The notes: generated by a model not told the origin, from the sequence alone. Positions 8,607 through 57,542 are shown, numbered from the stretch's first letter. The stretch is DNA of 64,000 bases from an uncultured Alphaproteobacteria bacterium (GCA_934271465.1 CAKQRQ010000010.1:951-64950); one strand, 5' to 3'. Numbers and translations: made by a program.

Positions 8607-8810
8607 AATAATAGAGCGTTTAAACGCTCCAGTCATTTCCAAGAGATTTCAAAAAATACACTTTTTAAGCGAACTGTCAACACATTGAAAAATAACGAAA
8701 AATTAAAATTATTGCTTTTTTAATAATTGGCTGATATACTTAAACCAATAGAGCGTTTAAACGTTGGTTTAAACGCTAGAGTCGGAGCGTCAACCACGGG
8801 GTTTTGTCTT

Positions 8811-10181
8811 ATGAAACAGCTTATTTTTATCCTTTTTACTTTTTGTGTTATTTCAAACACTTACGCATCTGACGAGTGTTTACATCGTCCAAGCTGTGAA
8901 GAATCAGGCTATACGCAGACTCGAAAAAAGTGCGCTTGTTTCAATAAAGACGTGCTCCCGTGTCCGTTTAATATTAATGATGATAACACAGTTTTCTGCG
9001 GAGATTTAGACTGCACGGATAAATGTAAAGATTTGCTTCCATTTTATGACGGACAAAGCAATACAAAAAAGATTATTGAACAGGCCGGCGAAAAAGGATT
9101 AGCTGCTTATGCGACAAATCTATTTTATGTTGGCAACAAGACAGGAGATTTCGGCCAAGGCAAATGGTATCTACCCTCTATCGGCGAATGGATGGATTTT
9201 ATCGGAACGGATATGTCTCAGGTTACACAACTTCTCTGGAGCAGCGGAAGTATCGGCGATAAAATGACACAGATTGAAGCCTCCCTTAAAACTTTAGCAA
9301 CCAAAGGAGCAGATGCTGAAATTTTAAGAGGAACGACATGGAAAGCTTATACAACATCATCACTATATGATAATGGTAAAAGTTGGATAATAGATTTGGC
9401 ACTTAAGTCAAGAAAAGTTGGCTATTTTCACCAACCAAGCGGCGGTGGGGGAAAAGTCCGTGCTGCTTTAATGATACGAAATTGTTTTAATCCGACAATC
9501 GGCGGAATTCCACCTAAAATCGGCGATGTAATGTATCAAGACAAAACCTATGGCGCTGTATCTGAGTATGACGGCAGCAAAACACCCGTCGGGGTTGTTG
9601 TCTCTGTTTCCGAAACCGGCCGCGATGTCATTATTCTGAATCTGAAAGATTTGACCTTCAATTCACAAACAGCGGTAAATAACTTTAATCCAGATAATCC
9701 CTACGGCGAAACGATTAACGTAATAGCTTGGGGGGTGCAAACTGTGGCATTAACATTCGGCACGGATGATTTTGTGACCGATTTGCAATCTTCCTGTAAC
9801 TGTAATTGCATGTTTTATGGAGAAGAAACAAACTGCCCCAAGGTTGACCATTGTGCGAAATATGATGGAAGTTGCTCCTGTTCAGAATGTGAAGAGGGAT
9901 ATTTGCTAGCGTATCAAGATGAAAAAATAGTCTGTTTCAAATATGACGGATGTTTCGGATGTCTGGTAGATGCCGGCGAAACCTATTACCGATATCAGGA
10001 TTATAAAACATTTAAAGAATGTTATGCGGTTTGCGGACCGCATTGCGAGCTGATGTCTTGCGGCGGCGTAACAGAATGTTATACTTGTGAAGGGGCTACC
10101 CAAAAAAAATGGATGGACTATGATAATTGCAGCATAGATTGTGAGAATTGCATCAAAACAAACGCTTGCTATTTTGAATAG
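8811..10181 (+). CDS. secreted Cys-rich modular protein with central DUF1566-like (GKWYLPSIGEW) domain
   Basis: Start chosen at MKQLIFILFTFCVISNTYA (signal peptide) rather than the ORF-track ATG at 8727. Has N-terminal Cys-rich repeats, a central domain, and a C-terminal Cys-rich NCPKVDHCAKYDGSCSCSEC module; paralog of 40073-42037. Confidence 0.7.
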   Translation: MKQLIFILFTFCVISNTYASDECLHRPSCEESGYTQTRKKCACFNKDVLPCPFNINDDNTVFCGDLDCTDKCKDLLPFYDGQSNTKKIIEQAGEKGLAAYATNLFYVGNKTGDFGQGKWYLPSIGEWMDFIGTDMSQVTQLLWSSGSIGDKMTQIEASLKTLATKGADAEILRGTTWKAYTTSSLYDNGKSWIIDLALKSRKVGYFHQPSGGGGKVRAALMIRNCFNPTIGGIPPKIGDVMYQDKTYGAVSEYDGSKTPVGVVVSVSETGRDVIILNLKDLTFNSQTAVNNFNPDNPYGETINVIAWGVQTVALTFGTDDFVTDLQSSCNCNCMFYGEETNCPKVDHCAKYDGSCSCSECEEGYLLAYQDEKIVCFKYDGCFGCLVDAGETYYRYQDYKTFKECYAVCGPHCELMSCGGVTECYTCEGATQKKWMDYDNCSIDCENCIKTNACYFE

Positions 10182-37693: not shown

Positions 37694-38935
37694 CTATCCG
37701 GCTTTTTTGACCTTGTGATGAATAAATTTTGGCGCTTTGCCGTCATTAATGACTTTGTCGTCAATGACAATCTCACTCAAATCATGCTCATCGGGCACAT
37801 CATACATCAACTCCAAAAGCGCCTCTTCCATAATGGCGCGCAGTCCGCGGGCGCCTGTTTTGCGCTCAATCGCTTTTTTGGCAATAGCTTTGAGCGCCGC
37901 ATCCGTAAAGGTCAGCTTGACGTTTTCCATCTCAAACATGGTTTTATACTGTTTGACAAGGGCGTTTTTGGGTTCGGTCAATACCTTAACCAAAGCCTTT
38001 TCATCCAAATCTTCCAAAGTGGCGATAATCGGCAGACGGCCGACAAACTCCGGAATCATGCCGTATTTGAGCAAATCTTCCGGCTGAACATCTTTGATAA
38101 TCTCGCCGATGTTTTTATCTTCCTTGGGAGCAACTTTGGCGCCAAAACCGATTGATGTTTCTTTGCCGCGGCGGCCGACGATTTTTTCAAGTCCGGCAAA
38201 AGCTCCGCCGCAAATGAATAAAATATTTGTTGTGTCGACATGCAAAAATTCTTGCTGCGGATGTTTGCGCCCGCCCTGCGGAGGCACATTGGCAACTGTT
38301 CCTTCAATAATTTTCAGCAGCGCCTGCTGAACGCCTTCGCCCGATACATCGCGCGTGATAGAGGCGCTGTCAGACTTGCGGGTAATCTTGTCAATCTCGT
38401 CGATATAAACAATGCCGCGTTGAGCTTTTTCGATATCATAATTGGCATTTTGAACCAGTTTTAGGATAATGTTTTCGACATCTTCGCCCACATAGCCGGC
38501 CTCGGTCAGGGTTGTGGCGTCAGCAATCGCAAACGGCACATCCAAAATCTTAGCCAGCGTCTGCGCCAACAAGGTTTTGCCGCTGCCGGTCGAGCCGATT
38601 AAAATGACATTGGACTTGGCAATCTCAACATCAGAATTTTTTTGAGAATTCAAACGTTTATAATGATTATAAACCGCCACTGAAAGGACCTTTTTCGCCA
38701 AATCCTGCCCGATAACATATTGATCCAAAAACTCTTTAATTTTGGAGGGCGTGGGCAGCTTGTCAAACATCACTTTGCCGTCGGCCTGTTCCATTTCTTT
38801 CATTTCGTCTGCGACAATATTGATGCAGACCTCAATACATTCGTTGCAGATATAAACTCCGCGGCCGGCCACGAGTTTTTTGACCTCATCCTGACTTTTG
38901 CCGCAAAAGGAGCAATGCAATTTTTCTTCAGCCAT
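37694..38935 (-). CDS. clpX: ATP-dependent Clp protease ATP-binding subunit ClpX
   Basis: N-terminal zinc-binding CSFCGK...CNEC, Walker A GSTGSGKT, sensor motifs. Confidence 0.95.
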
Positions 38936-38946
38936 TTTTCTTATCC

Positions 38947-39555
38947 TTATTTATTAAGTTCGCCGCGTGAGGTAACCACATGGTCAATCAGCCCGAATTT
39001 TTTGGCCTCTTCCGGCGTCATAAAGTTGTCGCGTTCCATAGCCGCCTCAATGATATTGAGCTTTTTGCCGGTATGGTGGGCATAAATCTGATTCAGGCGT
39101 TTTTTCATATCCAAAATCTCTTTGGCGTGGATTTCAATGTCCGTCGCCTGACCTCTGAACCCGCCGGAAGGCTGATGAATCATAATCCGCGCATTAGGAA
39201 GAGCAAAGCGCTTGCCTTTGGCGCCGCCGGCCAACAACAAAGACCCCATGGAGCAGGCCTGCCCGATACATAGAGTGTTCACATCGCAAGAAATATATTG
39301 CATTGTGTCATACATAGCCATGCCGGACGTGACAACGCCGCCGGGGGAGTTTATATAAAGGAAAATGTCCTTTTTGGGATCTTCCGCTTCCAAAAACAGC
39401 AGCTGCGCACAAACCAAAGACGAGACTTCGTCATTGACTTCGCCTGTCAAAAAGATAATGCGTTCTTTTAAAAGTCTCGAAAAAATATCATACGACCGCT
39501 CGCCGCGCGAGGTCTGCTCAATCACCATCGGAATAAGACTGTCTCTGATTTCCAT
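38947..39555 (-). CDS. clpP: ATP-dependent Clp protease proteolytic subunit ClpP
   Basis: Catalytic triad context [10 protein letters not shown] and HQP; start chosen at the internal Met. Confidence 0.95.
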
Positions 39556-39633
39556 AATTTGCCTTCCTTTTTTATAAACAAAAGTCACTTATCTAATGTA
39601 TCGCATATCATAATATATTCAACAAATGATTAA

Positions 39634-40017
39634 GAAAAGGCTTTTTTTAAGAAAAATGTTATTATTCAAAGTAGTCTTAATCTTATAAAATATTCAAAAT
39701 TTTATGCAGGATACGTTCCGACATTAACAGATACTGAAATTTTCAAATTAGACTGGAAAATCAACTTATTTGACGAAAGAGAAGAAGAAAATATAATAGT
39801 TAGTGATCAAGTTAGTGATCAAGTTAATAAAATTCTTGTGTTTTGTTCATCACCTCATTCATTAATTGAAATCATGGCTCAAACAAAATATACAAGCAAA
39901 GTGCATTTTAGAAACAAAATTTTGAAGCCTCTGATTGAGAAAGGTTTAATCAAACCGACAGCACCTGACAAACCCAATAGCCCCAAACAAAAATACCTTA
40001 CAGTAGGTAAAGAATAA
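39634..40017 (+). pseudogene. 5'-truncated remnant of a Fic-family protein gene (C-terminal about 125 codons, no start codon)
   Basis: Open frame with no ATG until codon about 80; translation ends ...ILVFCSSPHSLIEIMAQTKYTSKVHFRNKILKPLIEKGLIKPTAPDKPNSPKQKYLTVGKE. This resembles the conserved C-terminal wHTH tail of Fic-family proteins as I recall it (...PDKPxSxxQKY.LT). Contains a tandem 12-bp duplication gttagtgatcaa x2. Confidence 0.45.
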
Positions 40018-40072
40018 ACAATCTGTTATATTAATATCTCCGTGAAAGTTTTCACTTCCACGGAGATTTTTG

Positions 40073-42037
40073 TTATTGCGCAATACAGCTCAGCCCATCA
40101 TCCGAAAGCTCATATTCAACACCATAGGTGGAACTGCTACACCACCTACAAGAGCAATCATCTTGATAAGATCCGCAATGTTCTATTATGGGGCAATCCG
40201 AACTATTTGAATAGTCAATAACACAACGAATATGTTTTTGTGCACTCTTCTTATTTAATTGAAAGCTTGCCGTCCCTCTCTGAATAGCGACAAAGTAGGT
40301 AGATGAGTTTTCTGTTGAAGTTGCAAGATCTCCTATATGAAAATCATTACCACCCAAAACAGTTTTTGATCCAAACTTTAATGCCGAAGCATCAAAAAGA
40401 CAGACCATGGGATGTCCTTGTCCAATCATCGATAGAACTTCTGCGGCCGCTGGCAAATACCACTTACCTTTATCGGAATCTGTGACGCCATATTTGCTGC
40501 AATATACGGCTGCCGAATTTTCTTCAGCTCCGGCTGCAATGATACAATCTGTATTGGCCTGACCGTCTGTTCTGCTGTTACATCCGGTCTCCGTATTCGC
40601 CAAATTTTCACTCCAAGGAAGAGTAACCTCATCTAAAGATAGAGCTAACAGACGACCTGTATTGACATTGCTAGCCCTAAAAATTATACCTATCGGCGTT
40701 CTGTCTGACGGGAAATTGTCAGGATCATAACAGTTGAAATCATCATAAAGCACCATTCCAGGAACACATTCATCAGCAGAATAAACACATTTATTATCCT
40801 TCAACGTAAATCCTCTGGCGCAAACAGCGCATTCTGTTTCAGAAGCACATTGTTTACAATAATCTACGTCGCACATATCAGCATAGGTATGGCAATAGTT
40901 TTCCCTACAGCTTCCTTCAAATAAATATCCATCAAAAGACCTATCGCAAGCTGTACATTTACAACCAACCCATTCACTATCGTATTCAGAACAATTAGAA
41001 TCCGCTTTATAACATATCTCTCGACACTCATTAGTTTCACTATCAAACAGATATTTTCTAAACCCATTCTTACTGGAACAATCCTCACAAGCACAGGTAT
41101 CTGCATTAAAGGCCTTACCCTCAGCCGCACAAGTCGCCGCAGTCAAAGAACACGAGCAATCATAATAACATTGTGTGACGCTCGCCTCTCCGGCATAACC
41201 CGATCCGATATAAAAGTCGTTGCTACTGCAAGAATAATTTTCCGGTTCCGCATCAAGATAATCAGAATTAACTTCCTGACAATTTCTATAGCACGTGACA
41301 CACTGGCCATTATACAAGCATTTATCCGCACCTTCACAACAATCCGCATCATAACAAGTTGTCTTCTCGGCATTACTTGGAGCTACTCCAATCCAATATT
41401 GTGGATCAACCGGACAATCGTTTGCGGTAGATTGAAGATTTTTTGCCGGACTTTGCGCTGCTCCGGCCGCGGCACAGCTTGGATAATAAGGCGTGCAAAC
41501 ACCATTATCATCAACTTCCGTCGCTTTGCAGCATTTTGAATTATAACAAATTTTCTTTTGGAGAGAAGCATTTCCGTCAATATAAATGACAACTGTTTCG
41601 CAACCCGTATCTTCATCTGAATATCCCGCACTATGGCAATCTTTATAAGGCTTCCGGCAATTCCCGTCAATCTTATAATACCCATCCGGACAGCAATGAA
41701 TATAACAAGTTGTTTCTTCCCCTTTGACATAGATTTTAACCGTGCCGCAGCCTTGAGAAGTCGTATAATAACCGGCATCTTCACAGCTGTCATAATTTGG
41801 ATAACACAACTCGTTGACTTCTATCTTTCCATCAGGGCAGCTGCCGCTTGCCCCGCCGCAAAAAAGCTTGGTTGTATCAAACGGGCATCTGACGATTTGT
41901 TTGCCGTCACATTCCTCAAGGGTATTGACATACCCCATCTCATCACAGGTGGGCTCCACCGACGGACAGTCTTGTGAAGAGGCCGGATTGGCAAGCAATA
42001 TAGCCATAAGTCCGAGAAGAAGATATTTCTTTTCCAT
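40073..42037 (-). CDS. secreted, extremely Cys-rich modular protein with DUF1566-like (GKWYLP) domain
   Basis: Signal peptide MEKKYLLLGLMAILLANPASS; dozens of Cys in repeated CxxxGY...GC modules; DUF1566-like core CSKYGVTDSDKGKWYLPAAAEV; C-terminal DCPIIEHCGSYQDDCSCRWC module homologous to the 8811-10181 C-terminus. Confidence 0.7.
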   Translation of the reverse strand: MEKKYLLLGLMAILLANPASSQDCPSVEPTCDEMGYVNTLEECDGKQIVRCPFDTTKLFCGGASGSCPDGKIEVNELCYPNYDSCEDAGYYTTSQGCGTVKIYVKGEETTCYIHCCPDGYYKIDGNCRKPYKDCHSAGYSDEDTGCETVVIYIDGNASLQKKICYNSKCCKATEVDDNGVCTPYYPSCAAAGAAQSPAKNLQSTANDCPVDPQYWIGVAPSNAEKTTCYDADCCEGADKCLYNGQCVTCYRNCQEVNSDYLDAEPENYSCSSNDFYIGSGYAGEASVTQCYYDCSCSLTAATCAAEGKAFNADTCACEDCSSKNGFRKYLFDSETNECREICYKADSNCSEYDSEWVGCKCTACDRSFDGYLFEGSCRENYCHTYADMCDVDYCKQCASETECAVCARGFTLKDNKCVYSADECVPGMVLYDDFNCYDPDNFPSDRTPIGIIFRASNVNTGRLLALSLDEVTLPWSENLANTETGCNSRTDGQANTDCIIAAGAEENSAAVYCSKYGVTDSDKGKWYLPAAAEVLSMIGQGHPMVCLFDASALKFGSKTVLGGNDFHIGDLATSTENSSTYFVAIQRGTASFQLNKKSAQKHIRCVIDYSNSSDCPIIEHCGSYQDDCSCRWCSSSTYGVEYELSDDGLSCIAQ

Positions 42038-42198
42038 GGGTCAAATCCTCCAAACACAAACGCAGCCGCCGTTTCCAAAAACAGCCACCTATACATATAT
42101 TTTAGTTTAACATCAAATAATTAAAAAAACAATAACTTTTATTTTGATTAAAAAAAGCTCCGATTCCTCGGAGCTTTTCAAATAAGCAGGCTTTTGCC

Positions 42199-43554
42199 TT
42201 AAGCTGACTTTTTAGAAGCTTTCTTAGCCGGCTTTTTGGCATCGTCAAAGCGATACAATTCCTCAACCGAAACCTTTTTATCGTTCAATTTGGCCAATGA
42301 AACAATATGGTCAATGATTTTTTCTTCAAAAATCGGCGCCTTCAAAGCCTCAACAGCCTGTTTATTCTTCAGATAATAATCTAAAACAGCCTGTTCCTGC
42401 CCCGGATATCTCTTAGCCTCGTTCATAATAGCGGCGTTGATATCTTCCGGCTTAATCGAAACTTTGGCATTCTGTCCGACCTCAGACAACAACAAGCCCA
42501 ATTTAACGCGGCGGATAGCAATATCTTTGTATTCTTTAAGCAAATCAGCCTCTTTTTTGCTCTTTTCTTCTTCATCAAGTTGGTTATATTTCTTAGCCTG
42601 TTCATATTGGTTGACAATAGCTTTGTATTCCGCATCAACCAAAGACTCCGGAACTTCAAAAGAATATTCCTTATCCAAAACATCCAACAACTGGCGTTTC
42701 AATTTCATGCGGGAGGCATTTTCATAGTCGGATTTAATACGCTTTTCCAAAGTCTCCCTCAATTTAGCAAGGCTCTCCGCGCCCAAAGACTTGGCCAACT
42801 CGTCATTAATCTCAACCTCTTTAGGCTCGCGGACTTCTTTAACCGTTACGGCAAAGACAGCGTCCTTGTCCGCCAAATCTTTGGCATGGTAATTGGCAGG
42901 AAATTTAACCTTAACATCTACCTTTTTACCGGCTTCAACCCCGATAAGCTGATCTTCAAATCCGGGGATAAACGAACCTGAGCCCAGCTCCAAAGGATAA
43001 TTATCGCCCTTGCCGCCCTTAAATTCGACACCGCCGACCGACCCGACAAAGTCAATCATAACTGTATCACCCTTAGCGGCCTTTTTGCCGTCGACTTTAA
43101 CAGTCTCTTTGCGGGCCTGAGCCAAATATTTGACAGCCTTGTCAACTTCCTCGGCCGGAACATCGGCAACAAATTTATCCAAAGAAATCTTCGAAAAATC
43201 ACCGAGCTTAATTTCAGGCAAAACCTCAACATCCATCTCAAATTCAAGATCTTTGCCCTCGCCGAAAGCCGTAATTTTAACGGCAGGCTGAGTTGCCGGA
43301 CGAAGTTTCTTCTCGTCCAAAACCTTGTTTGAGCCGTTGCGGACGGAATCATCCAAAGCCTCGCCCATCACTTCTTTTTCAAATTTTTTCTTAATCATGG
43401 CCAAAGGCGCTTTGCCGGCTCTGAATCCTTGAATTTTGGCAGTCTTGGCAATCTGAGCCAATTTCGCGTCAACCTCTTTGGCAAATTCTTCCTTGGGCAT
43501 AACGACTTTATAAGATTTTTTGAGCCCTTTGGCTTTTAATTCGGTAACTTTCAT
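42199..43554 (-). CDS. tig: trigger factor
   Basis: 451-aa ORF with N-terminal ribosome-binding domain, FKBP-like middle and C-terminal arms. Confidence 0.9.
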   Translation of the reverse strand: MKVTELKAKGLKKSYKVVMPKEEFAKEVDAKLAQIAKTAKIQGFRAGKAPLAMIKKKFEKEVMGEALDDSVRNGSNKVLDEKKLRPATQPAVKITAFGEGKDLEFEMDVEVLPEIKLGDFSKISLDKFVADVPAEEVDKAVKYLAQARKETVKVDGKKAAKGDTVMIDFVGSVGGVEFKGGKGDNYPLELGSGSFIPGFEDQLIGVEAGKKVDVKVKFPANYHAKDLADKDAVFAVTVKEVREPKEVEINDELAKSLGAESLAKLRETLEKRIKSDYENASRMKLKRQLLDVLDKEYSFEVPESLVDAEYKAIVNQYEQAKKYNQLDEEEKSKKEADLLKEYKDIAIRRVKLGLLLSEVGQNAKVSIKPEDINAAIMNEAKRYPGQEQAVLDYYLKNKQAVEALKAPIFEEKIIDHIVSLAKLNDKKVSVEELYRFDDAKKPAKKASKKSA

Positions 43555-43601: not shown

Positions 43602-43686
43602 TGGTGCGGGCGAAGGGACTTGAACCCCCACTCCTTACGGAACCAGATCCTAAGTCTGGCGCGTCTGCCAGTTCCGCCACGCCCGC
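43602..43686 (-). tRNA. tRNA-Leu (anticodon UAG)
   Basis: Reverse complement GCGGGCGTGGCGGAACTGGCAGACGCGCCAGACTTAGGATCTGG...GGGGGTTCAAGTCCCTTCGCCCGCACCA folds with a 7-bp acceptor stem, long variable arm, anticodon loop CTTAGGA, and terminal CCA. Confidence 0.85.
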
Positions 43687-46256: not shown

Positions 46257-47204
46257 CTAAATTTTCTGCAAAAGTAATTTCTTATAATATTTAGGCAAAA
46301 AAACAAAACCATAACTTTTTGCCAAAAATTTACGCACCTTATAAAAAGGAATAGTTTTCAGAAGTTTTGCAATTTTTTCTATCCGACTTACAAGTTCTGG
46401 ATGACGATAAATACTCCCAGAATAAGTCATCGTGCAAATACCGTTATAGCGTTTTTTGTATTCATAATCACCGCCCAATAAATAAGCTTTTTTCTTATGA
46501 TTATTAATCCAGCTCTCAATAATATTATGATAAAGAACCATTCCGATAGAGTATTTAGAATACTCAAGGTCATAGGCAAAATTTTCAAAATAGACATTTT
46601 CTTTATTTGTCTCTGAATCAAAACCGATAGCTATAATTTTACTGCCAGTTTTCAATAAATATGCATTAGAAACGCCAAAATCTTTTAAATACAAATTAGG
46701 ATCATATGAAAAATCGTGAGATATTTTTTTCCAAGATAAATACAAATCAACAATATCTTGAGAAATCATTTCTTTCTCTATTTTTTCAAAACAAATATTT
46801 CCAACCTCTGTCAACAACTTTTTGGCATAATATCTGGCATGTTGTCTTTCTTTTCCCGAAAGTTGAGCATCAAATTCCTCAATAGTTTGAGGCAAATCAA
46901 TATGCCAATGCGGCGCCGCTTTAATAGTTGAAAAAGGAGTATAAGTATGCAAAATAGAAATTTCTAAAATATTAGAATTCGAAGAAAACACATAATTCGC
47001 AAACTCTAGCAAATTTTCTTTTCCTATATTTCTCAAATACAATCCAGCCAGACAAACATTGCCCTGCAAATGAATCGGAATCAATATTCCACTATCTAAC
47101 TCAACTAAATTATAATCTGTTCCAAATAGTAAATCAAATCTGTTATGTATAACATCAGGATCTATATTAAACAGCTTTGCTTTTAACAATTTCGCCATCA
47201 TCAA
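46257..47204 (-). CDS. putative FemAB/CelD-like (GNAT-fold) acyltransferase
   Basis: 315-aa AT-rich ORF; weak resemblance to Acetyltransf_6/FemAB family; C-terminal IPFYKVRKFLAK motif. Confidence 0.35.
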   Translation of the reverse strand: MMMAKLLKAKLFNIDPDVIHNRFDLLFGTDYNLVELDSGILIPIHLQGNVCLAGLYLRNIGKENLLEFANYVFSSNSNILEISILHTYTPFSTIKAAPHWHIDLPQTIEEFDAQLSGKERQHARYYAKKLLTEVGNICFEKIEKEMISQDIVDLYLSWKKISHDFSYDPNLYLKDFGVSNAYLLKTGSKIIAIGFDSETNKENVYFENFAYDLEYSKYSIGMVLYHNIIESWINNHKKKAYLLGGDYEYKKRYNGICTMTYSGSIYRHPELVSRIEKIAKLLKTIPFYKVRKFLAKSYGFVFLPKYYKKLLLQKI

Positions 47205-47229
47205 TCTCTAAATAATTAAATTTACAGTT

Positions 47230-48186
47230 CTAATATTTTAAAAATAGCTTAAATTTTTTTCTGATTTTCTTTATCGGAAAAAGACAAACAACAGGCCTTA
47301 AAATCAACTTAATAAACGACATAAATAGCAATTTATATTTAATCTTGTTCAAATCAATACATAAACTCTGCAATGCGCACAATAACTCTCTTTGCACTTT
47401 AAATACTTCCTCATCACTAATATCATAATTTTTAACAAGATTATTCAAATCCGCTTCACAAAATTCATAATTCGATAAATCTAAAGGTTCCTTTTGTTTA
47501 TTAAATACAGAATAGTAATCATAAAATTTATAGCGGCTAGTTGTTTCTTCTGAAATCCTAACCCACTGATTGGGAATACGTAAAGCATCACACGCTATTA
47601 GCGGATGCATCGCCGTAGAAATAACGGCTTTACACTCACACATATCATGCAAAAATTTGTCAACAGAAAGCGTAGCATCTAAAATTTTGGAATTTGGTAT
47701 ACGCCCCGTAATTTTGGAAAAAACTTTGCTATCTCTATCTGCATAATGAGGCACTATTCCTAATTCATATTTCTTTTCAATCTTATCAGAATCAATAAGG
47801 TAACTAACTAACAAACCACCATCACCTAAAACAGCTCCAGTCGAATGGCCTAACATTTTAGATATACGAGCCTCCGTTAATTTACCACGAAGAGCATAAC
47901 ACTTTACATTACGCCTTAATTTTTCTGGTAAAATAATATTAGGATTATGAAAAAATTTTCCCTCCTCAAAGCCTATACCCGTAGAAAATAACCAAATAGG
48001 GTTTTCTTTAAATATATGGTCTTTAGTATCCATTAAGAGCATATCGCCTAAAGAACCTATTCCCATAATCATCGCAAAATCCACAGGAGCAAATCTAATT
48101 TTAATTTTTGCTAATTTAGAAAAAATAATAGGATTCAAAGCATCTCCAAAATTAGGTATATCACAGTAAAAAAAAGGAATTTTCAT
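47230..48186 (-). CDS. polysaccharide pyruvyl transferase family protein
   Basis: N-terminal FFYCDIPNFGDALNPIIF is typical of PS_pyruv_trans (CsaB/WcaK-like); C-terminal FPIKKIRKKFK motif. Confidence 0.6.
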   Translation of the reverse strand: MKIPFFYCDIPNFGDALNPIIFSKLAKIKIRFAPVDFAMIMGIGSLGDMLLMDTKDHIFKENPIWLFSTGIGFEEGKFFHNPNIILPEKLRRNVKCYALRGKLTEARISKMLGHSTGAVLGDGGLLVSYLIDSDKIEKKYELGIVPHYADRDSKVFSKITGRIPNSKILDATLSVDKFLHDMCECKAVISTAMHPLIACDALRIPNQWVRISEETTSRYKFYDYYSVFNKQKEPLDLSNYEFCEADLNNLVKNYDISDEEVFKVQRELLCALQSLCIDLNKIKYKLLFMSFIKLILRPVVCLFPIKKIRKKFKLFLKY

Positions 48187-48224
48187 TATATTTTCTCCAA
48201 ATTTTATAAAAAAATAATTTGCTG

Positions 48225-48812
48225 TTATTTCAAATAATTTTTAAAAATATCCTCTCTAACCCACTCTCTTGGCAATTCATTCACTTGAGGATAACTCATA
48301 CAAGCCTCATCCAAATTGTCATAATTTAACTTATCTCTCCACCCAACTATTTTAGCAGGATTGCCTGCTACTATAGCATACTTGGGAATACTTTTAGTTA
48401 CAACACTACCTGCACCAACAATTACACCATCATCTATTTTTACTCCACCTAATATGATACATCTAACACCTATCCATACGTTTCGGCCAATTTCGACATG
48501 TCTCAATAAACCTATATGATCATAGGGAATGCGCGTAGAACTCTTATAATTATGACAGGTAGTGAGAATTAAAGAATCTTCTCCTAACTTCGAATATTCA
48601 CCTATTGAAATCCCCCCCTCAGCATACAATTTACATCCCCTTCCTATATACACATTACCACCAAGTTCAATGTTTTCAATAAACCGACATTCTGCTGTTG
48701 GTTCAATAACATTTTCCTTGTAAATTTTTGGCAAATGTTCTTTTTTGTATTCAATTTGTAGTTTTTTACGAATTTTCTTTAATGGTATTAAATTTATCAT
48801 CCATTTTTTCAT
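48225..48812 (-). CDS. hexapeptide-repeat (LbH) O-acetyltransferase
   Basis: Left-handed beta-helix repeats (NVYIGRGCKL, IGRNVWIGVRCIILGGVKIDDGVIVGAGSVV); N-terminal LIPLKKIRKKL motif. Confidence 0.75.
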   Translation of the reverse strand: MKKWMINLIPLKKIRKKLQIEYKKEHLPKIYKENVIEPTAECRFIENIELGGNVYIGRGCKLYAEGGISIGEYSKLGEDSLILTTCHNYKSSTRIPYDHIGLLRHVEIGRNVWIGVRCIILGGVKIDDGVIVGAGSVVTKSIPKYAIVAGNPAKIVGWRDKLNYDNLDEACMSYPQVNELPREWVREDIFKNYLK

Positions 48813-49555
48813 AATTTGCCTTTCAAATACCTTGTGATAGGAATGAGTCTAAATGCCTCAGCATAATTTACATTATTCGCCATACACCCCCTATAAATAT
48901 TCAATCCCAATATGCGTGGAATTAAATTATATTTTACCCATTGCGATTTATACAACTTTAGAGCTTGTTTTTTTACAGAGACAACCTGTGAGATATCTTC
49001 ATAATAATTTGGAGATTTAAGAGGAGACCAAACTTCATAAAAGCCTATAATTGTATCTTTATTATAGCCTTTTCTACGTATAATTTCTTTAGCAAGAACA
49101 TTTGTTATGTATTTATGTTCTATATGTTCATCATAAGGATTAGGCAAAAAAATATAATCATACCTTAATATATCTAACACAGCACAATAATCTTGAAACA
49201 TTTCGTTAATTTGATCAATAAAGGGAGGCTTTCCAAAAGTTTTAAATATCCACCTATTTTGAACCCCCAACATATCCATAACTTTGTTAAATTCCACAAT
49301 CCTAATATCAGCCCGTTCTTCAGCTTGAATATCTCCATAAGCAACCCCTGAGCTTGAAACACAACAAACATCAAAATTTTTAGTATATTTAATAAGCATT
49401 CCTCCCATCCCTAGCATTTCATCATCTGGATGAGGAGCAATCAAAAGACATCGTGTATCACTTTCTATGCTTAAATCAATGTGACGAAAATAATATTTTC
49501 GTAGTTTATGCCTTAATTTCTTATTAGGAATAAAATTTATTAACCACTTCCACAC
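48809..49555 (-). CDS. PIG-L/LmbE family N-acetylglucosaminyl deacetylase
   Basis: LLIAPHPDDEMLGMGG motif; N-terminal FIPNKKLRHKL motif. Confidence 0.75.
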   Translation of the reverse strand: MWKWLINFIPNKKLRHKLRKYYFRHIDLSIESDTRCLLIAPHPDDEMLGMGGMLIKYTKNFDVCCVSSSGVAYGDIQAEERADIRIVEFNKVMDMLGVQNRWIFKTFGKPPFIDQINEMFQDYCAVLDILRYDYIFLPNPYDEHIEHKYITNVLAKEIIRRKGYNKDTIIGFYEVWSPLKSPNYYEDISQVVSVKKQALKLYKSQWVKYNLIPRILGLNIYRGCMANNVNYAEAFRLIPITRYLKGKL

Positions 49556-49567
49556 AATACAAACCCC

Positions 49568-50527
49568 TCATCTTTTCACATTATATAAAGACTTGCGCAT
49601 TCTTTTTAATTTTTTGCGAAAAGTTTTTATCGGCATTAATTTTAAACAGAGCCACAAAAAAAACGACTTAAGATAAACAATGTTTGTCGGAAAAAAATAA
49701 TCTTTGTTATAAAAAGGTGAAGTTTCAATATATGAAAAATATTCTTTTGATATTTCAGTATATGCTCTATTCCATATTTTAGGATTCCTTCCAGCATAGT
49801 GAATAATTTTAGGATTAGCCTTTGCTTCCTGAAGCTCTGCATCAGAATACACATGTGAAAGCCAAGGATACTCAGGAGCTAAATTTATAGGGTAATCAAA
49901 TATATTCTCCAAAACACAATAATTAAAAGGTATTTCCAAAATCTTATCAACAGACAAATTCAAAACATCTAAGTCAAACATTTTTAATTCTGAGTTAAAA
50001 TCCTTTATAGTCTGAAAAAAACGCGAAAGCATATTTTTATTTCGCCATTGTTTAGCATTTATAAGCATAAAACCAGACATATAAATATACGGTTTGGAAT
50101 TTGACTTGAAATGCGTATGAACACCATTCTTTTCATCCTGCCGTTCAGCTACAACCCCTGCCCAATCATAATCAGATAAATCCATATTATATATCTCTGT
50201 CAAATCTCCACGAAATAAAACATCAACATCTGACCAAATTATTTTATCATATTCTTTAACAACATCCGCAATAAGCAATCTATAATAAACAGATATTGGC
50301 CAATTCTCTGAGATTGGTGCATTAGAAAAAAAATCACATACTTTAATCCATCTAATATATGGACATACGCACCCCATTTTGGAAATTGTCTTTTCACTCA
50401 AATTTCCATATAATACAATTATGTCATATTCTGTATCAAAGTTCCTATGTTTTAATAAAGATGAAATAGCAATACTTGCGGGAAGAGCATACCTATCATC
50501 AAAAGCAAAAACTATGGGTATTTTCAT
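49568..50527 (-). CDS. glycosyltransferase family 8
   Basis: IVFAFDDRYALPASIAISSLL, YYRLLIADV..., DVDVL (DxD); C-terminal MPIKTFRKKLK motif. Confidence 0.75.
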   Translation of the reverse strand: MKIPIVFAFDDRYALPASIAISSLLKHRNFDTEYDIIVLYGNLSEKTISKMGCVCPYIRWIKVCDFFSNAPISENWPISVYYRLLIADVVKEYDKIIWSDVDVLFRGDLTEIYNMDLSDYDWAGVVAERQDEKNGVHTHFKSNSKPYIYMSGFMLINAKQWRNKNMLSRFFQTIKDFNSELKMFDLDVLNLSVDKILEIPFNYCVLENIFDYPINLAPEYPWLSHVYSDAELQEAKANPKIIHYAGRNPKIWNRAYTEISKEYFSYIETSPFYNKDYFFPTNIVYLKSFFLWLCLKLMPIKTFRKKLKRMRKSLYNVKR

Positions 50528-51672
50528 TGTGAAAGAATCTCCTTAAAATTATTTAAACTTTCCATTTTCAACCGTTCAAACAATTGCATAAGAAATATTT
50601 GTTTTTTCTTATATCCTTGCTGATCAATTGTGATAGCTTCTTGCATACCTTTAGTTAAATCTTTTGAAATTATTGCATTTTCATTATCAAAACCATAAAA
50701 TGGTGCAAAATGTGGATGTATGACAGGAATCTTTCCAAATGCATATATAAGTTGAGCCGAACCAGTAACTCCGGTAGTAATGTAACGATTATGTTCAAAA
50801 TTTTCAGGATTTAACAACGGCAAATAAAAATCAGCTTCTTCCATATATCTAAACATCTCTGAAAAATTCAAACGTCCCGTTATTTCAATATATGAACGAA
50901 TTTCTTCTGGTAAATTTTCCAATTTACCTTTGCCAACGACAACAACCTTAAAATTTTGCTTTAACGCAACTAATTCTTTAATCGCCGAAATCAATTTCTG
51001 ATGATCTTTACGTTCTTGTTGTATTCCTCCAACACATATAAATACGGTCTTTTTTCCTTTTTGTGTTATATTAATACTTCCAAACAAAAGCGGAGAAGCA
51101 AACACTGTTTGAGGGAAATGTCCCAAAGTTATGAGATGTTTTTGTTTGCAGAAAGAACGTTCATTAAAACGGTTTATATCATTTAAATCATGTTCTACAA
51201 TAAACAATGAATGGTGCTTTCTCAACTGTGGATAATAATTTAATACGGACATATACATACCATTAACGCAATAAAAATAAGCAGCTGAGCTCATTAGAAT
51301 AATATGTTTATATTCATAAAATTTTCTAGATGCCAAAAAAAACTTCATCAATGAAAAATCGGACATAAAAACAAAAACATTTGAAATATCTAAACGACAA
51401 AATGGATTTTCTTTTACTATTATCGGATTTACAAGTATATCAACATTATATCCAATATCTTGAAAATATTTCAAATAACCGCCTATAACCTCCCCATGAG
51501 TATTATTTACTTCAACAAGTAATACACTATTTTTCCTCGTTTTCATCTTTAAAAATTTATACAAATTGCAAAAATCCTGTATATTTAAATGCATTAAATA
51601 ATTACGAAAATAGCGACGTTTATTTCTATTAAAAATAAGGAACGTTAACAACCTCGCAATAAACTTTTTCAT
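50524..51672 (-). CDS. glycosyltransferase family 1 (GT4-like)
   Basis: C-terminal GT-B nucleotide-binding motif (ICVGGIQQERK...EADFYLPL...TGVTGSAQLI). Confidence 0.65.
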   Translation of the reverse strand: MKKFIARLLTFLIFNRNKRRYFRNYLMHLNIQDFCNLYKFLKMKTRKNSVLLVEVNNTHGEVIGGYLKYFQDIGYNVDILVNPIIVKENPFCRLDISNVFVFMSDFSLMKFFLASRKFYEYKHIILMSSAAYFYCVNGMYMSVLNYYPQLRKHHSLFIVEHDLNDINRFNERSFCKQKHLITLGHFPQTVFASPLLFGSINITQKGKKTVFICVGGIQQERKDHQKLISAIKELVALKQNFKVVVVGKGKLENLPEEIRSYIEITGRLNFSEMFRYMEEADFYLPLLNPENFEHNRYITTGVTGSAQLIYAFGKIPVIHPHFAPFYGFDNENAIISKDLTKGMQEAITIDQQGYKKKQIFLMQLFERLKMESLNNFKEILSQ

Positions 51673-53024
51673 GCCTTCCCCCACTGTTCTAATATCCAAG
51701 AAGATGAATTCATTTTACTGCTTCCGCCAACTCCAAAAGCTAAATCCACATGGCATTCCTCACATACCGGATGTTCCGGTATATTATCTTTTCCCCTATC
51801 TCCACCATTTGCAAAGACCAAATGTATATTAGGATATTTAACTTTAGCTTTTCTTATTCCGTCACTTGCTGAGCCATCAGAATCATCAAATTCAATAACA
51901 TCCACAACGCCTTTAAGGTTTTCTAAAATCGATTTCCGTGTCTGTATTGAATAAAAATTTTTTCCTTTTTTTCGTTTTAACCATTCATCAGAATTAACTA
52001 AAACTATCACCCCATCTGAAGCGGACGAAGCGGCCTTTATCATTTCTATATGTCCCTCGTGAATAGGATCGAAGCCACCTGACACAATGTAATAAGTTAA
52101 CTTTGAATTGTTTTTTAATAAAAACAACTTTTTCAAAAAGTTAAGAATCGTTTGTTTAAAAATTCTTCTAGAACGTTTTCTAATTAGTCTGTCTGACAAT
52201 GATGTCTGTTGCAAAAGCCCCTTAACCTTCAAAAAATCTTTTGGATCCATTTTTTTGATATTCAAAAAATTTATTATACAAAAATCACTTAAAGCTCTTT
52301 TATCTTCCTCTAAACAAGCTTTTTTTCTCGCAAAATCCATAATCATTCTGAAAATAGAAATACTGTCCTGTATACGCTTAATTTCTTTTGCGGGATCTCG
52401 TGTTGTGCTATTCGGATTACAAACATAATTATATCCAGAACCATCTATAACTGAAAACTTATCAGAATAAAACAAAGCATTAATAACAAATAAATTATCT
52501 TCCCAATAAAGCCCTTCAGGAAAAATAATTTGATTATTTTTAATAAGGTCAATTTTATATATTTTATCCCAAACACCACCATGAGGCAAAACTTTAACTT
52601 TATCTGAAAATTTTGTTAAAATTTTATGCCCAAAGTGAGTCTGTTTAACACTCTTTCTCTCAACATATTTTGTATTTGTCATAACAATATCGGCATTTAC
52701 ATATTGAGCTTCAGTAAACAAATCCATCAAAAATTCAGCATCATAAAAGTCATCAGAATCTAAAAAACAAACATATTGACCAGAAACTAGCTTAAGTGCT
52801 CTATTACGAGCAGCAGCCTGACCTTGATTCTCCTGTGTCACAACCTTTATTCGAGAATCTTTTGCAGCATATCGATTCAAAATTTCAACACTGCCATCTG
52901 TCGACCCGTCATTAACAACAATCGCTTCCCAGTCTTGAAATGTCTGAGCCAAAACAGAATCCAGACATTTTGCAACATACTTTTCGCAATTATAACAAGG
53001 GATAATTACCGAAATCTTAGGCAT
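51669..53024 (-). CDS. family-2 glycosyltransferase fused to C-terminal cytidylyltransferase-like (HIGH-motif nucleotidyltransferase) domain
   Basis: N-terminal ISVIIPCYNCEKYVAKCLDSVLAQTF...FLDSDD GT2 motifs; C-terminal YYIVSGGFDPIHEGHIEMI nucleotidyltransferase motif. Confidence 0.75.
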   Translation of the reverse strand: MPKISVIIPCYNCEKYVAKCLDSVLAQTFQDWEAIVVNDGSTDGSVEILNRYAAKDSRIKVVTQENQGQAAARNRALKLVSGQYVCFLDSDDFYDAEFLMDLFTEAQYVNADIVMTNTKYVERKSVKQTHFGHKILTKFSDKVKVLPHGGVWDKIYKIDLIKNNQIIFPEGLYWEDNLFVINALFYSDKFSVIDGSGYNYVCNPNSTTRDPAKEIKRIQDSISIFRMIMDFARKKACLEEDKRALSDFCIINFLNIKKMDPKDFLKVKGLLQQTSLSDRLIRKRSRRIFKQTILNFLKKLFLLKNNSKLTYYIVSGGFDPIHEGHIEMIKAASSASDGVIVLVNSDEWLKRKKGKNFYSIQTRKSILENLKGVVDVIEFDDSDGSASDGIRKAKVKYPNIHLVFANGGDRGKDNIPEHPVCEECHVDLAFGVGGSSKMNSSSWILEQWGKA

Positions 53025-54864: not shown

Positions 54865-56439
54865 TTATTCCTTCACTTTGGCAAATTTGACCTTAGGAAA
54901 GTCCTCCTGCGCCTTGTTCAAATGCCAAGCATTGCGCGCCAAAAAGACCAAAGCTCCGTCATTATCTTCGGCCAAATTCAAACGGTTGGCATCTGTAAAT
55001 TTCTTCATCTCCAGTTTATCTTCCGAGGACACCCACCGCGCGGTAAAATACTGAGTCGGTTCAAACATGACCGGCAGATTAAACTCATTTTTAATCCTGT
55101 CCGCCATAACCTCAAACTGCAAAACGCCTACAACGCCCACAATCCATTCCGCGCCGACCACCGGCTTAAACACGCTCGCGCCGCCCTCTTCGGCAATCTG
55201 TTTCAGCGCGTCGCCCAAATGCTTGGATTTCAAAGGATCCAGCGCCCGTGCCGATTTCAAAAGTTCCGGCGCAAAAGCCGGTATCCCTGTAAAGTTAATC
55301 TTTTCGCCCTCGGTCAAACTATCTCCGATTCTAAGTTGCCCGTGGTTGGGGATTCCGATAATATCCCCTGCAAACGCATCTTCCGCAAGCTCCCGCTCTT
55401 GAGCCAAAAACATAACCGGCGTCGGCACCTTAAGTCCCTTGCCCGTGCGCACCTGCGTCAAAGTCATTCCCCGTTTAAAATGCCCCGAACAAATCCGCAT
55501 AAAGGCAATCCTGTCACGATGTTTCGGATCCATATTTGCCTGAATCTTAAACACAAACCCCGTCACCTTGCCCTCATCGGGATTAACCATTCGTTCCACC
55601 GCCGGATGAGGTCTCGGAGTCGGCGCAAATCGGTGTAATCCTTCCAAAACCTCCCTCACGCCAAAATTATTGATGGCGCTTCCAAAAAAGACAGGAGTCA
55701 CAGTTCCGGCCAAATAGGCCTCCAAGTCAAACTTAGGGCACAATTCCTCAATCATCATCACATCTTCACGCAGTTTGGCCACCTGATGCGCCGGCAACAA
55801 CTCGTCCAACTTTGGATCATCCAACCCTGAACATGTCTCAATCACGCTGTTAACGGTTGACTTATCGCCGGTTTTGCTCATCAAAATCATGCGGTTGTTC
55901 AAAATATCATAACACCCTTTAAAGTCTTTACCTGATCCAACCGGCCAACTTGCCGGTGTCACATCCAAAGCCAACGTGCGTTCAATCTCGTCCAACAACG
56001 CAAACGGATCCTGCCCCTCTCGGTCAAGTTTGTTGATAAAGGTAATAATCGGCACATCTCTCAGCCGGCAAACCTCAAACAGTTTCTTGGTCTGAGCCTC
56101 AATACCTTTGGCCGAGTCCAAGACCATCACGGCCGAATCAACCGCCGTCAGCACACGATACGTATCTTCCGAAAAGTCCTCATGCCCCGGTGTATCCAAC
56201 AGGTTAAAAGTAATTCCGTCATAGTCAAAAGTCATCACGGACGAAGCCACCGAAATTCCGCGCTCCTGCTCCACTTTCATCCAGTCCGACCGCGCACGGC
56301 GGTTTTCGCCGCGGGCTTTAACGGCGCCAGCCTGCTGAATAGCCCCCCCGAACAACAGCAATTTTTCGGTCAAAGTTGTCTTACCGGCGTCAGGGTGGGA
56401 AATAATCGCAAAAGTTTTGCGCGGATTAACTTGTGTCAT
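54865..56439 (-). CDS. prfC: peptide chain release factor 3
   Basis: AIISHPDAGKTTLTEKLL GTPase G1, DTPGHEDF, NKLD; 524 aa. Confidence 0.9.
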   Translation of the reverse strand: MTQVNPRKTFAIISHPDAGKTTLTEKLLLFGGAIQQAGAVKARGENRRARSDWMKVEQERGISVASSVMTFDYDGITFNLLDTPGHEDFSEDTYRVLTAVDSAVMVLDSAKGIEAQTKKLFEVCRLRDVPIITFINKLDREGQDPFALLDEIERTLALDVTPASWPVGSGKDFKGCYDILNNRMILMSKTGDKSTVNSVIETCSGLDDPKLDELLPAHQVAKLREDVMMIEELCPKFDLEAYLAGTVTPVFFGSAINNFGVREVLEGLHRFAPTPRPHPAVERMVNPDEGKVTGFVFKIQANMDPKHRDRIAFMRICSGHFKRGMTLTQVRTGKGLKVPTPVMFLAQERELAEDAFAGDIIGIPNHGQLRIGDSLTEGEKINFTGIPAFAPELLKSARALDPLKSKHLGDALKQIAEEGGASVFKPVVGAEWIVGVVGVLQFEVMADRIKNEFNLPVMFEPTQYFTARWVSSEDKLEMKKFTDANRLNLAEDNDGALVFLARNAWHLNKAQEDFPKVKFAKVKE

Positions 56440-56554
56440 GATACAAACTCCTCTTAACCTGCGCTTTTACCCGAAAACAAAGCCCCTGTCAAGAGGCAAC
56501 AAAAAGCCCTCTCCTTTTATCAAAAGAGAGGGCTCATGAGCTCAAAATCAGACT

Positions 56555-57382
56555 TTATTTACCGATTTCGTTTCCTTTGGTGTCATATTTGACAACCTTG
56601 GCCTTGTCCTGCAAATTCTTAATTAAATCGCCCATAGATTTTTGCGCCAGCATAGCTTTAAGCTGGGGCTCAATCTGTTTCATAGGCTGCGGTTTGGCGG
56701 TGCGGATGTCCTCAACCAAAATGACGTGATACCCGAACTGTGTCTTGACCGGAGTCTTTGTATATTGGCCTTTTTTCAGCTTAAAAGCCGCATCGGCAAA
56801 TTCAGGCACCATCATATCTTTTGTGAAATACCCCAAATCAGCTGGTTCTTTGGAATATTCCTTAGCCAATTTCTCAAAATTGCCGTCTTTCTGGAATTTA
56901 GCAATAACTTCTTTAGCCTTGGCCTCGGAATTAACCAAAATATGTTTGGCCTTAATTTCCTGTTCGCCATGGAAAGTCTTTTTGTAATCTTCATACAACT
57001 TTTTGACAGCCGCGTCATTGACCTGAGCTCTGACCTGTTTGTCCAGATAAATCTTGCGAGCCAATTCCTCTTTCAGGCTTTTGAGCTGATTCTTATACTC
57101 GGGCGTTTCCTCAACCTTAGCTGCCTCAGCCGCCTGATAAACAATCTCGCCGTCAACAAAAATATCCAAAGTTTTCTCATAAAACTCATCAAACGAAGCC
57201 TTTTCCTTAACAGCCGGATTAGCTTCATAAGCAGTTTTGATGTCGGCAACCGTAATTTTTTTGCCGTTGACGACAGCCGCAACGCCGTCTTTTCCGGCAG
57301 CCAAAGACGTTCCCGACTGCAGCAAAGCCAAGCCGAAAGCCGCCAACAGCAAATATTTTTTGTTCATATCCTTTTCCTCCAC
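56555..57382 (-). CDS. parvulin-type peptidyl-prolyl isomerase (SurA/PpiC-like), periplasmic
   Basis: Signal peptide; C-terminal parvulin domain (AKHILV...FGYHVILVEDIR). Confidence 0.75.
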   Translation of the reverse strand: MEEKDMNKKYLLLAAFGLALLQSGTSLAAGKDGVAAVVNGKKITVADIKTAYEANPAVKEKASFDEFYEKTLDIFVDGEIVYQAAEAAKVEETPEYKNQLKSLKEELARKIYLDKQVRAQVNDAAVKKLYEDYKKTFHGEQEIKAKHILVNSEAKAKEVIAKFQKDGNFEKLAKEYSKEPADLGYFTKDMMVPEFADAAFKLKKGQYTKTPVKTQFGYHVILVEDIRTAKPQPMKQIEPQLKAMLAQKSMGDLIKNLQDKAKVVKYDTKGNEIGK

Positions 57383-57542
57383 ATAAAAAAAACTTCATCT
57401 TCTGAAGTTATATAATAAAAAGTCGAAAAATTCCAAGATATTTTTTTTGCTGGTTTATAACTCCGTCAGTCTCTTGACTCTGCACATTTAAAACACTAAA
57501 TGTAGACTATTGCATAATTTATAATAACTAAGGATAAGAAGA

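Follow-up and report, generated by a model that had tools for sequence, protein, structure and literature searches.

We analysed a stretch of 64,000 nucleotides from an uncultured Alphaproteobacteria bacterium (GCA_934271465.1, CAKQRQ010000010.1:951-64950), hereafter called the window, in which a 2.6-kb segment at 39589-42198 separates tig, the gene for trigger factor, from clpP and clpX. The minus strand carries, in this order, tRNA-Leu, tig, an open reading frame (ORF) for a cysteine-rich protein of 654 residues, clpP and clpX, and a short frame without a start codon runs on the plus strand between the cysteine-rich gene and clpP. The original prediction, made from the sequence alone, described this segment as an accessory insertion composed of a cysteine-rich DUF1566-like gene and a truncated Fic-family remnant, and took it for the scar of a horizontally acquired cassette that has since decayed. 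All the elements that it named are present at or close to the positions that it gave, and Pfam matches and gene coordinates agree with its placement of tig, clpP and clpX around the segment. Our account of what these elements amount to is a different one: we consider it likely that the tig-clpP spacer holds a composite, species-specific insert, consisting of a strain-variable, adhesin-like gene unit that belongs to a family, and of a truncated foreign gene whose winged helix-turn-helix (wHTH) is under constraint. The features of the locus are as follows.

40073..42037, minus strand: intact gene for the predicted secreted, cysteine-rich modular protein of 654 residues (ORF; 63 cysteines, 9.6%)
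42038..42149, minus strand: promoter-like block and 5' untranslated region of the cysteine-rich gene (ATTG..TTTTTTAAT..TGTTAAACTAAAAT, with a GGAGGA Shine-Dalgarno sequence)
41148..41288, minus strand: mosaic junction within the cysteine-rich gene (blastn break points and protein-level map)
40036..40067, extended pairing to 40070, between the convergent ORFs: hairpin terminator of the cysteine-rich family (folding)
39658..40017, plus strand: 5'-truncated remnant of an AlbA_2/HATPase_c_4/wHTH (COG2865-type) gene (Pfam, identity to protein P0017, context of P0017, G+C content)
39634-40017, plus strand: start-less open frame of 127 codons and a stop, opening directly after a TAA
39798..39826, plus strand: 12-bp tandem repeat encoding the linker VSDQVSDQV (Tandem Repeats Finder; 2.4 copies, 100% matches)
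39626..39657, plus strand: host-derived 5' end of the fused ORF seen in relatives (ATG at 39626; alignments)
39589..39657, minus strand: clpP-upstream element (TTTTCTTAATCATTTGTTGAATATATTATGATATGCGA...), intact on the clpP side (aligned with the tig-clpP spacer of nine empty-site relatives)
42150..42177, minus strand: intrinsic terminator of tig and tig-side edge of the insert (stem of the AAAAGCUCCGAG/CUCGGAGCUUUU type, then a U-run)
42199..43554, minus strand: tig, upstream flank of the insert (Pfam Trigger_N, FKBP_C and Trigger_C)
38947..39588, minus strand: clpP, downstream flank (Pfam CLP_protease, E 5e-87)
37694-38935, minus strand: clpX (gene call)
43602-43686, minus strand: tRNA-Leu

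Eighty tig loci were taken from species-representative genomes and the window genes were located in each of them. In the closest group, nine species (L002, L006, L007, L008, L012, L013, L014, L016 and L065), whose Tig is 81-87% identical to that of the window, have a spacer of only about 130-195 bp between tig and clpP and lack the insert, so that the predicted splitting of tig and clpP by an accessory insertion is borne out by the synteny of relatives. The empty-site spacers align well with each other: behind the hairpin of the tig terminator come a T-run and a short A-run, and a conserved element (TTTTCTTAATAATTTGTTGATTATATTATGATATG...) precedes clpP. Both of their ends are kept in the window. 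The tig terminator (fold of -23 kcal/mol, z-score -4.3; the empty-site relatives have an equivalent hairpin and T-run 3' of tig) stands on one side and the clpP-upstream element, which at 39589-39657 is the best match in the window to the consensus of the empty-site relatives (score 44), on the other; the insert is therefore bounded at approximately 39658-42149 (~2.5 kb). The clpP-upstream element is presumably the clpP promoter, and the true start of clpP is probably the ATG at 39555, which has GGAAGG ahead of it (the call in relatives is 202 residues long).

No homologue of either inserted gene adjoins tig in any of the 80 related loci, the sole match being a weak one, to the cysteine-rich protein, ~3.4 kb upstream of tig in L037. 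At the same time, the insert is present in all near-identical contigs (L081-L086, L088 and L092, from metagenomes and one NCBI metagenome-assembled genome [MAG]; 95-98% DNA identity), which were retrieved via P0002, P0003 and P0016. We conclude from these two observations that the insert was acquired at the species level. No integrase or transposase ORF lies within 39589-42198. As a candidate for target-site duplication or terminal inverted repeats we considered an 18-nt inverted repeat (39640-39657/42141-42158), which corresponds to the T-run and A-run of the ancestral terminator tail and is unconvincing. A duplication of the clpP promoter around the insert was likewise rejected: within the window, the tig-side region ranks second in its match to the clpP-upstream consensus but scores only 22, where unrelated AT-rich spacers reach 19 and the true copy 44, and because the same block also lies upstream of family genes elsewhere it reflects family or general promoter architecture rather than duplication.

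The cysteine-rich ORF, with the length and the 63 cysteines originally predicted, has a clear modular layout. Residues 1-22 read as a typical signal peptide without a lipobox, residues 23-60 make up a conserved C..C..GY..C..CPFD..FC motif, residues ~61-420 comprise cysteine-rich stalk modules, residues ~421-610 a divergent DUF1566/Lcl_C head and residues 611-654 a cysteine-rich tail. In the full-length model the N-terminal motif reaches a predicted local distance difference test score (pLDDT) of ~89 and the head >90. The ratio of non-synonymous to synonymous substitutions (dN/dS) lies between 0.12 and 0.30 along the gene, which fits a functional gene. The block at 42038..42149 would, by its sequence, act as the promoter, and an upstream promoter-like block is common to family genes at other loci (L087, L089 and window 8660-8830). 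At the other end of the gene, the predicted hairpin terminator was confirmed: it folds at -18.8 kcal/mol on the plus and -22.4 kcal/mol on the minus strand (z-scores -5.0 and -7.4, with no shuffle folding as well), it is followed on the plus strand by TTTTTG, and its stem carries compensatory changes, T>C and A>G, in L081 and L088. Since this hairpin is found directly 3' of the stop codon in every family gene, including the paralogues at the other locus, where P0001 and P0006 lie between kdsD-lptC and deoA in related strains, it belongs to the cysteine-rich gene unit.

The label "DUF1566-like" was upheld through relatives, profiles and fold, the direct Pfam score of the window protein being below the cut-off. 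A phmmer search with residues 400-654 against 1.84 billion representatives returned 175 relatives, with a consensus of ~250 residues made up of a signal peptide, the C..C..GY..C..CPFD..FC motif and a head with G..NT, YC and W[YF]LP motifs; the conserved W-[YF]-L-P and Y-C motifs are retained. Lcl_C/DUF1566 was reached by 32 of 50 smaller head relatives (best E 9e-11), P0001 scored 22.6 bits against Lcl_C, and P0011 has a precomputed Lcl_C match. The profile of the head relatives matches PDB entries 4eps (3.7e-6) and 8q4e, the C-terminal domain of Lcl (3e-4). A PDB sequence search with the whole cysteine-rich protein gave no match, and neither insert product was matched in NCBIfam. With an AlphaFold2 model of residues 400-654 (pLDDT 82.5), Foldseek returned 4eps (1.2e-5, template modelling score 0.54 on the query) and 8q4e (3.5e-3, probability 0.99), and then C-type lectins as weak matches; in BFVD the head also strongly matches phage proteins of the DUF1566, tail-fibre and collagen-repeat types (E 1e-10 to 6e-5, probability 1.0).

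Lcl of Legionella pneumophila combines a stalk with a DUF1566 head of C-type-lectin-like fold and binds glycosaminoglycans (PMC11162425). The window protein is similar to Lcl (8q4e) in having a signal peptide, a long repetitive stalk and a C-terminal DUF1566 C-type-lectin-like head, and in both proteins stalk length differs between strains. However, its stalk is composed of disulfide-rich modules where that of Lcl is a collagen triple helix, and its head contains cysteines and is followed by a cysteine-rich tail, whereas the C-terminal domain of Lcl is reported to have no disulfides (PMC11162425). The top PDB match by both profile and fold, the fimbrial protein BACOVA_04982 of Bacteroides ovatus (4eps), belongs to a surface appendage of a gut bacterium and also ends in a lectin-like domain, but differs in its type V pilus-type N-terminal domains, in the lack of a cysteine-rich stalk and in an identity of only 14%. 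The phage tail-fibre and receptor-binding proteins with DUF1566 (BFVD, including crAss-like phages) share the arrangement of repeats followed by a distal binding domain, as well as the swapping of heads between similar proteins; unlike them, at 12-24% identity, the window gene encodes a Sec signal peptide and is located between housekeeping genes with no phage genes nearby. We suggest that the gene is a self-contained unit, bounded by a promoter block and a hairpin terminator of the family type, whose product would be exported by its Sec signal peptide and then disulfide-bonded, adopting a lollipop-like layout of a small N-terminal cysteine motif, a cysteine-rich stalk of repeated modules and a C-terminal DUF1566/Lcl_C head. 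By its sequence and models it most likely serves in binding, as an adhesin or lectin that is secreted or associated with the surface.

Two further occurrences of these modules were seen within the window. A second family member lies at 8727-10181 (plus strand), with its true start probably close to 8808; it combines a signal peptide with a CPFN motif, a cysteine-rich tail and two modules that also occur in a flagellin. This flagellin, of 673 residues (60336-62357, minus strand; Flagellin_N E 1e-11, Flagellin_C E 4e-8), contains in its central variable region (approximately residues 245-470) a DUF1566-like module and a GTAPKVGDVMYEDKTWG...INLRDLTFSS module, both common to the cysteine-rich paralogues, and the head-domain profile also matches five near-identical public flagellins (P0249-P0254). 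A flagellin with a DUF1566-like module may form an adhesive or lectin-bearing flagellar filament. Our literature search found no paper linking DUF1566 to a flagellin insert, and nothing specific on the genomes of this gut alphaproteobacterial lineage. At the paralogous locus, in L089 (9404-9823) and L087 (9357-9785), an ORF of 139-150 residues without a Pfam match precedes the cysteine-rich gene; it has no counterpart at tig-clpP.

Among strains with flanks that are 95-98% identical, at least four alleles occupy the tig-clpP slot:

Window allele: 654 residues
P0003 allele (L088), 891 residues: the N-half of the window allele with a different C-half in which DUF1566 is not detectable
P0002 allele (L092): the C-half of the window allele with a different upstream part
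P0013-type allele (L081, L083): a head only 32-33% identical to that of the window

At the DNA level the L088/P0003 allele is 98.2% identical to the window down to 41288 and the L092/P0002 allele 97.5% identical from 41148 onward, both halves of the window allele being thus independently confirmed at the tig-clpP locus. The paralogous locus (L089, L091; P0001) is 90.5% identical from 41148 to 40033, hairpin included, and the homology of L081 and L082 to the window ends at 40071, at the hairpin. The switch at the protein level falls in a recurrent C-x-L-x-A-x-TCAA linker, and two of three repeat modules are missing in comparison with P0003. These alignments indicate that the diversity arises by module exchange and not by point mutation. 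We infer that variation would be generated by homologous recombination between alleles and paralogues, with exchange in the 5' region, at the C-x-L-x-A-x-TCAA linker motif and at the 3' hairpin, all of them conserved, giving different stalks and heads to strains with nearly identical flanks. The window allele is composed of a P0003-type N-half, from which two repeat modules were deleted, and a P0001/P0002-type C-half. This is similar to variable surface-protein loci such as adhesin and pilin cassette systems, where near-identical flanks likewise enclose very different alleles, paralogues have conserved 5' and 3' ends with exchangeable internal modules, and break points lie in conserved linker motifs. 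Unlike in cassette systems, no silent-cassette array, recombinase or invertible promoter was found here, and the variation is between strains.

The plus-strand frame of 127 codons has, as originally predicted, no start codon, and indeed no in-frame ATG, GTG or TTG before a GTG at 39838. Its residues 62-121 match Pfam Fic-like_C (PF21247; E 1.1e-13, 51 bits against a cut-off of 27), and it matches the C-terminus of a solved Fic protein (PDB 4rgl, E 2.8e-5), so the Fic-like tail had been recognised correctly. The parent, on the other hand, was not a Fic (Fido) enzyme: Fic-like_C is a wHTH domain also common to non-Fic families, true Fic proteins align only over residues 56-126, sharing the linker and the C-terminal wHTH, and no Fido domain (PF02661, HPFx[D/E]GNGR) was detected in the remnant, no Fido region ever being aligned. 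The closest homologues carry HATPase_c_4 and SLFN AlbA_2 domains. Residues 16-126 of the frame (from nt 39679) are 71% identical to residues 102-213 of P0017, a protein in which residues 67-121 match HATPase_c_4 (PF13749) and directly upstream of which lies an AlbA_2 ORF. The remnant itself gives no Pfam match to PF13749, but the stretch 16-35 of the remnant is highly identical in alignment to residues 102-121 of P0017, which lie inside that domain; AlbA_2 (PF04326) is absent from the window and is found in P0025, P0026 and the ORF upstream of P0017. Because the domains and context of P0017 match and Fic proteins align only from residue 56 onward, we assign the parent, from these alignments, to the COG2865-type AlbA_2/HATPase_c_4/wHTH genes, cut at about 39658-39679, with the window holding a fragment and not a member proper. 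It retains the last ~20 residues of HATPase_c_4, the xDQV repeat linker and the complete Fic-like_C winged helix. In comparison with the COG2865-type putative regulators annotated as "ATP-dependent DNA helicase RecG" (SLFN AlbA_2, HATPase_c_4 and Fic-like_C wHTH), it thus lacks AlbA_2 and most of HATPase_c_4, and its ORF is joined to 11 codons of host origin. P0017 (L093 2041-3421), the nearest relative of the parent gene, is found on a metagenome contig of 3.5 kb beside two genes for type IV pilin-like proteins (Bundlin/PilS), and there the parent is itself split into an AlbA_2 ORF and a HATPase_c_4-wHTH ORF.

Base composition separates the two parts of the insert. The remnant has a G+C content of 28.9% (z-score -2.5), with 21% at third codon positions (GC3), against window gene means of 43% and 45%, and is therefore regarded as foreign DNA, in agreement with the proposed 5'-truncated foreign gene; the cysteine-rich gene barely deviates (42.3%, z-score -0.2; GC3 33.9%, z-score -1.0). 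The 12-bp tandem duplication, which had been listed among the features of the remnant, is present but is no mark of decay: xDQV tetrapeptide repeats precede the wHTH in P0017, P0018, P0020, P0022, P0025, P0043 and PDB 4rgl, and their copy number varies, with two in the window and three in L092. From this distribution, the repeat is a native linker of variable length.

In relatives the frame is part of an ORF of 130 residues that begins with ATG (MIKKRLFFKKNVII..., P0016), with host DNA in reverse orientation supplying the first 11 codons. Its ATG, at 39626, corresponds to the reverse complement of CTTAATCAT, a part of the clpP-upstream element that reads CTTAATAAT in the empty-site species, which hence have no ATG. 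In the window the T-run at 39642-39648 is T7, compared to T8 in five relatives, and it is this single-base difference that puts the ATG out of frame and leaves the frame without a start; a separate 1-nt deletion near the T-run is seen in L092. Over the last 67 codons, which encode the wHTH, nine non-identical pairs among five strains show 7-17.5 synonymous versus 2-3.5 non-synonymous differences, that is, a dN/dS of 0.03-0.07 at a proportion of synonymous differences (pS) of 0.17-0.42. For comparison, dN/dS is 0.014 for tig and 0.023 for clpX, and clpP has zero non-synonymous change. The ~40 codons preceding the wHTH are also under strong purifying selection (manual count on the alignment). 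Neutral decay would be expected to leave a different pattern, and either the wHTH has been expressed now or recently, or it has been converted from a selected paralogue. The second unit of the insert is the 3' third of a low-GC AlbA_2/HATPase_c_4/wHTH gene that was cut at its junction with the clpP-upstream element and, in relatives, is fused to 11 host codons to give the 130-residue ORF, from which the T8-to-T7 difference disconnects the start in the window. Kept by purifying selection, the winged helix was therefore presumably expressed, or still is, as a small wHTH protein.

Several observations weigh against our reading of the locus as a variable adhesin-like unit joined to a constrained wHTH fragment. 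The window protein scores only 13.9 bits against Pfam Lcl_C (PF07603; E 0.07), with a cut-off of 34.9, the stalk is modelled at a pLDDT <50, and there was no gene-wide signal of positive selection, pairwise dN/dS in the head being 0.21-0.29. The 41148-41288 junction is seen in the window assembly only, and could have resulted from chimeric assembly across paralogous repeats. For the remnant ORF no Shine-Dalgarno sequence or promoter was found, and its 5' end is frameshifted in two genomes (the window and L092), which is awkward for a currently functional protein. Finally, the organism is uncultured, and the function is a prediction from sequence and models.

It could be argued that the insert is nonetheless what the original prediction took it for, a decaying, functionless scar of a horizontally acquired cassette in which both genes are being lost. 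The remnant is indeed 5'-truncated, low in G+C and startless in the window, it has been independently frameshifted in L092, and no mobility genes are left in the interval. This is nevertheless improbable, as the cysteine-rich ORF is intact in all alleles, of which there are at least four, with its own Shine-Dalgarno sequence and promoter-like block, constrained codons and paralogues in the same genome, and the dN/dS of the remnant wHTH comes close to that of tig and clpX. If the remnant is not dead, it may have been exapted as a small wHTH regulator of the cysteine-rich gene or of clpP, with the T7/T8 run as a slippage-prone on/off switch and the insert as a regulated two-gene module. The purifying selection on the wHTH and the codons before it would agree with this, as would the many stand-alone small proteins in databases that consist of PF21247 only, the position of the ORF start inside the clpP-upstream element, where an A-to-C change creates an ATG in insert-bearing strains only, and the location of the window frameshift in a homopolymer. 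However, the ORF lacks a recognisable promoter as well as a Shine-Dalgarno sequence, a run of seven or eight is short for phase variation and the frameshift in L092 does not fall in a homopolymer, the difference of one base in the T-run might stem from faulty assembly, a search for operator-like repeats gave none, and the cysteine-rich paralogues at other loci do without such a partner; we regard a regulatory role as conceivable but doubtful.

Selection on the remnant could also be second-hand: a complete paralogue elsewhere in the genome, intact and itself under selection, would repeatedly overwrite by gene conversion a fragment that is without function. Identity in the remnant and its surroundings varies from 77% to 100% per 100 nt, a patchiness that fits short recombination tracts, and intact or split parents of the same architecture occur in related metagenomes (P0017/L093). 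Yet there is no second copy or paralogue of the remnant within the 64-kb window, the closest known relative, at 71% protein identity, is too distant to be a donor, and the truncation point is identical in all strains, so that we give this explanation little credence. As for the cysteine-rich protein, it might be a receptor-binding protein derived from a phage or tailocin, or a toxin or bacteriocin that is secreted and targeted by its head, considering that the best structural neighbours of its head are phage tail-fibre and DUF1566 proteins and that exchangeable heads on secreted, cysteine-rich proteins are reminiscent of polymorphic toxins and bacteriocins. Neither locus, however, has adjoining phage, tail, lysis, immunity or secretion-system genes, a Sec signal peptide is present, no toxin domain was detected in the protein, and the display of related modules in the variable domain of a flagellin argues for a role in surface binding; an origin of this kind therefore seems improbable as well. 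In a search with PADLOC for membership in a defence system, the remnant, its relatives and the cysteine-rich protein gave only noise (E above 1e-3).

Beyond the composite insert that we favour, a bolder proposal is that an undescribed system of module shuffling operates in uncultured gut alphaproteobacteria, with the tig-clpP slot as one of its expression sites. Lectin-like DUF1566 heads and cysteine-rich stalk modules would be swapped, from a common pool, among several secreted proteins and even the surface-exposed domain of the flagellin to yield strain-specific adhesive or antigenic repertoires, with the family promoter, linker and hairpin serving as recombination anchors and the captured wHTH, under selection, as a locus-specific regulator. 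We put this forward as speculative and rather unlikely as a whole.

Further variability was noticed around the locus and in the wider group. Tig of the window is 80-87% identical to that of many MAGs labelled "Alphaproteobacteria bacterium" from human, ruminant and bird gut samples. In the closer group, synteny breaks at the 3' end of tig: this gene is joined in L001 and L004 to a homologue of window 54868-60266, and in L074 directly to a TPR gene, with no clpPX there. In a clade at 64-71% Tig identity (loci within L021-L067), 3.2-6.9 kb lie between tig and clpP, and the two scanned cassette types of that clade, which differ in layout, encode GT2 glycosyltransferases, methyltransferases, GtrA, a sulfatase-family enzyme and large polytopic membrane proteins. 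The tig-clpP interval thus behaves as a recurrent site of envelope-related accessory genes and rearrangement, with MAG misassembly being possible for these loci. Within the window, a low-GC island at 46257-53024 (minus strand) comprises seven genes of 29-33% G+C, against 43% elsewhere, for a GNAT-like protein, a polysaccharide pyruvyl transferase, a hexapeptide acyltransferase, a PIG-L deacetylase, GT8 and GT1 proteins and a GT2-cytidylyltransferase fusion. The homology of contig L088, from a 98%-identical strain, stops at window 46243, at the edge of this island, which is probably a second strain-variable region for surface polysaccharide.

We conclude that the tig-clpP locus is an ordinary sort of variable surface-protein locus, built on a DUF1566 stalk-and-head design, and not a decaying scar. 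Current understanding is not overturned by this finding, but even a neighbourhood as strongly conserved as tig-clpP-clpX can host strain-variable surface genes, and in this gut alphaproteobacterial clade the interval has been used repeatedly for envelope-related cargo. The purifying selection on a truncated foreign fragment warns that such pieces should not be written off as dead at first glance. The previously uncharacterised family defined here, with its signal peptide, CPFD cysteine motif, cysteine-rich stalk and DUF1566 head, is a reasonable candidate for adhesion to host or mucus and for differences in niche between strains of an uncultured gut lineage.

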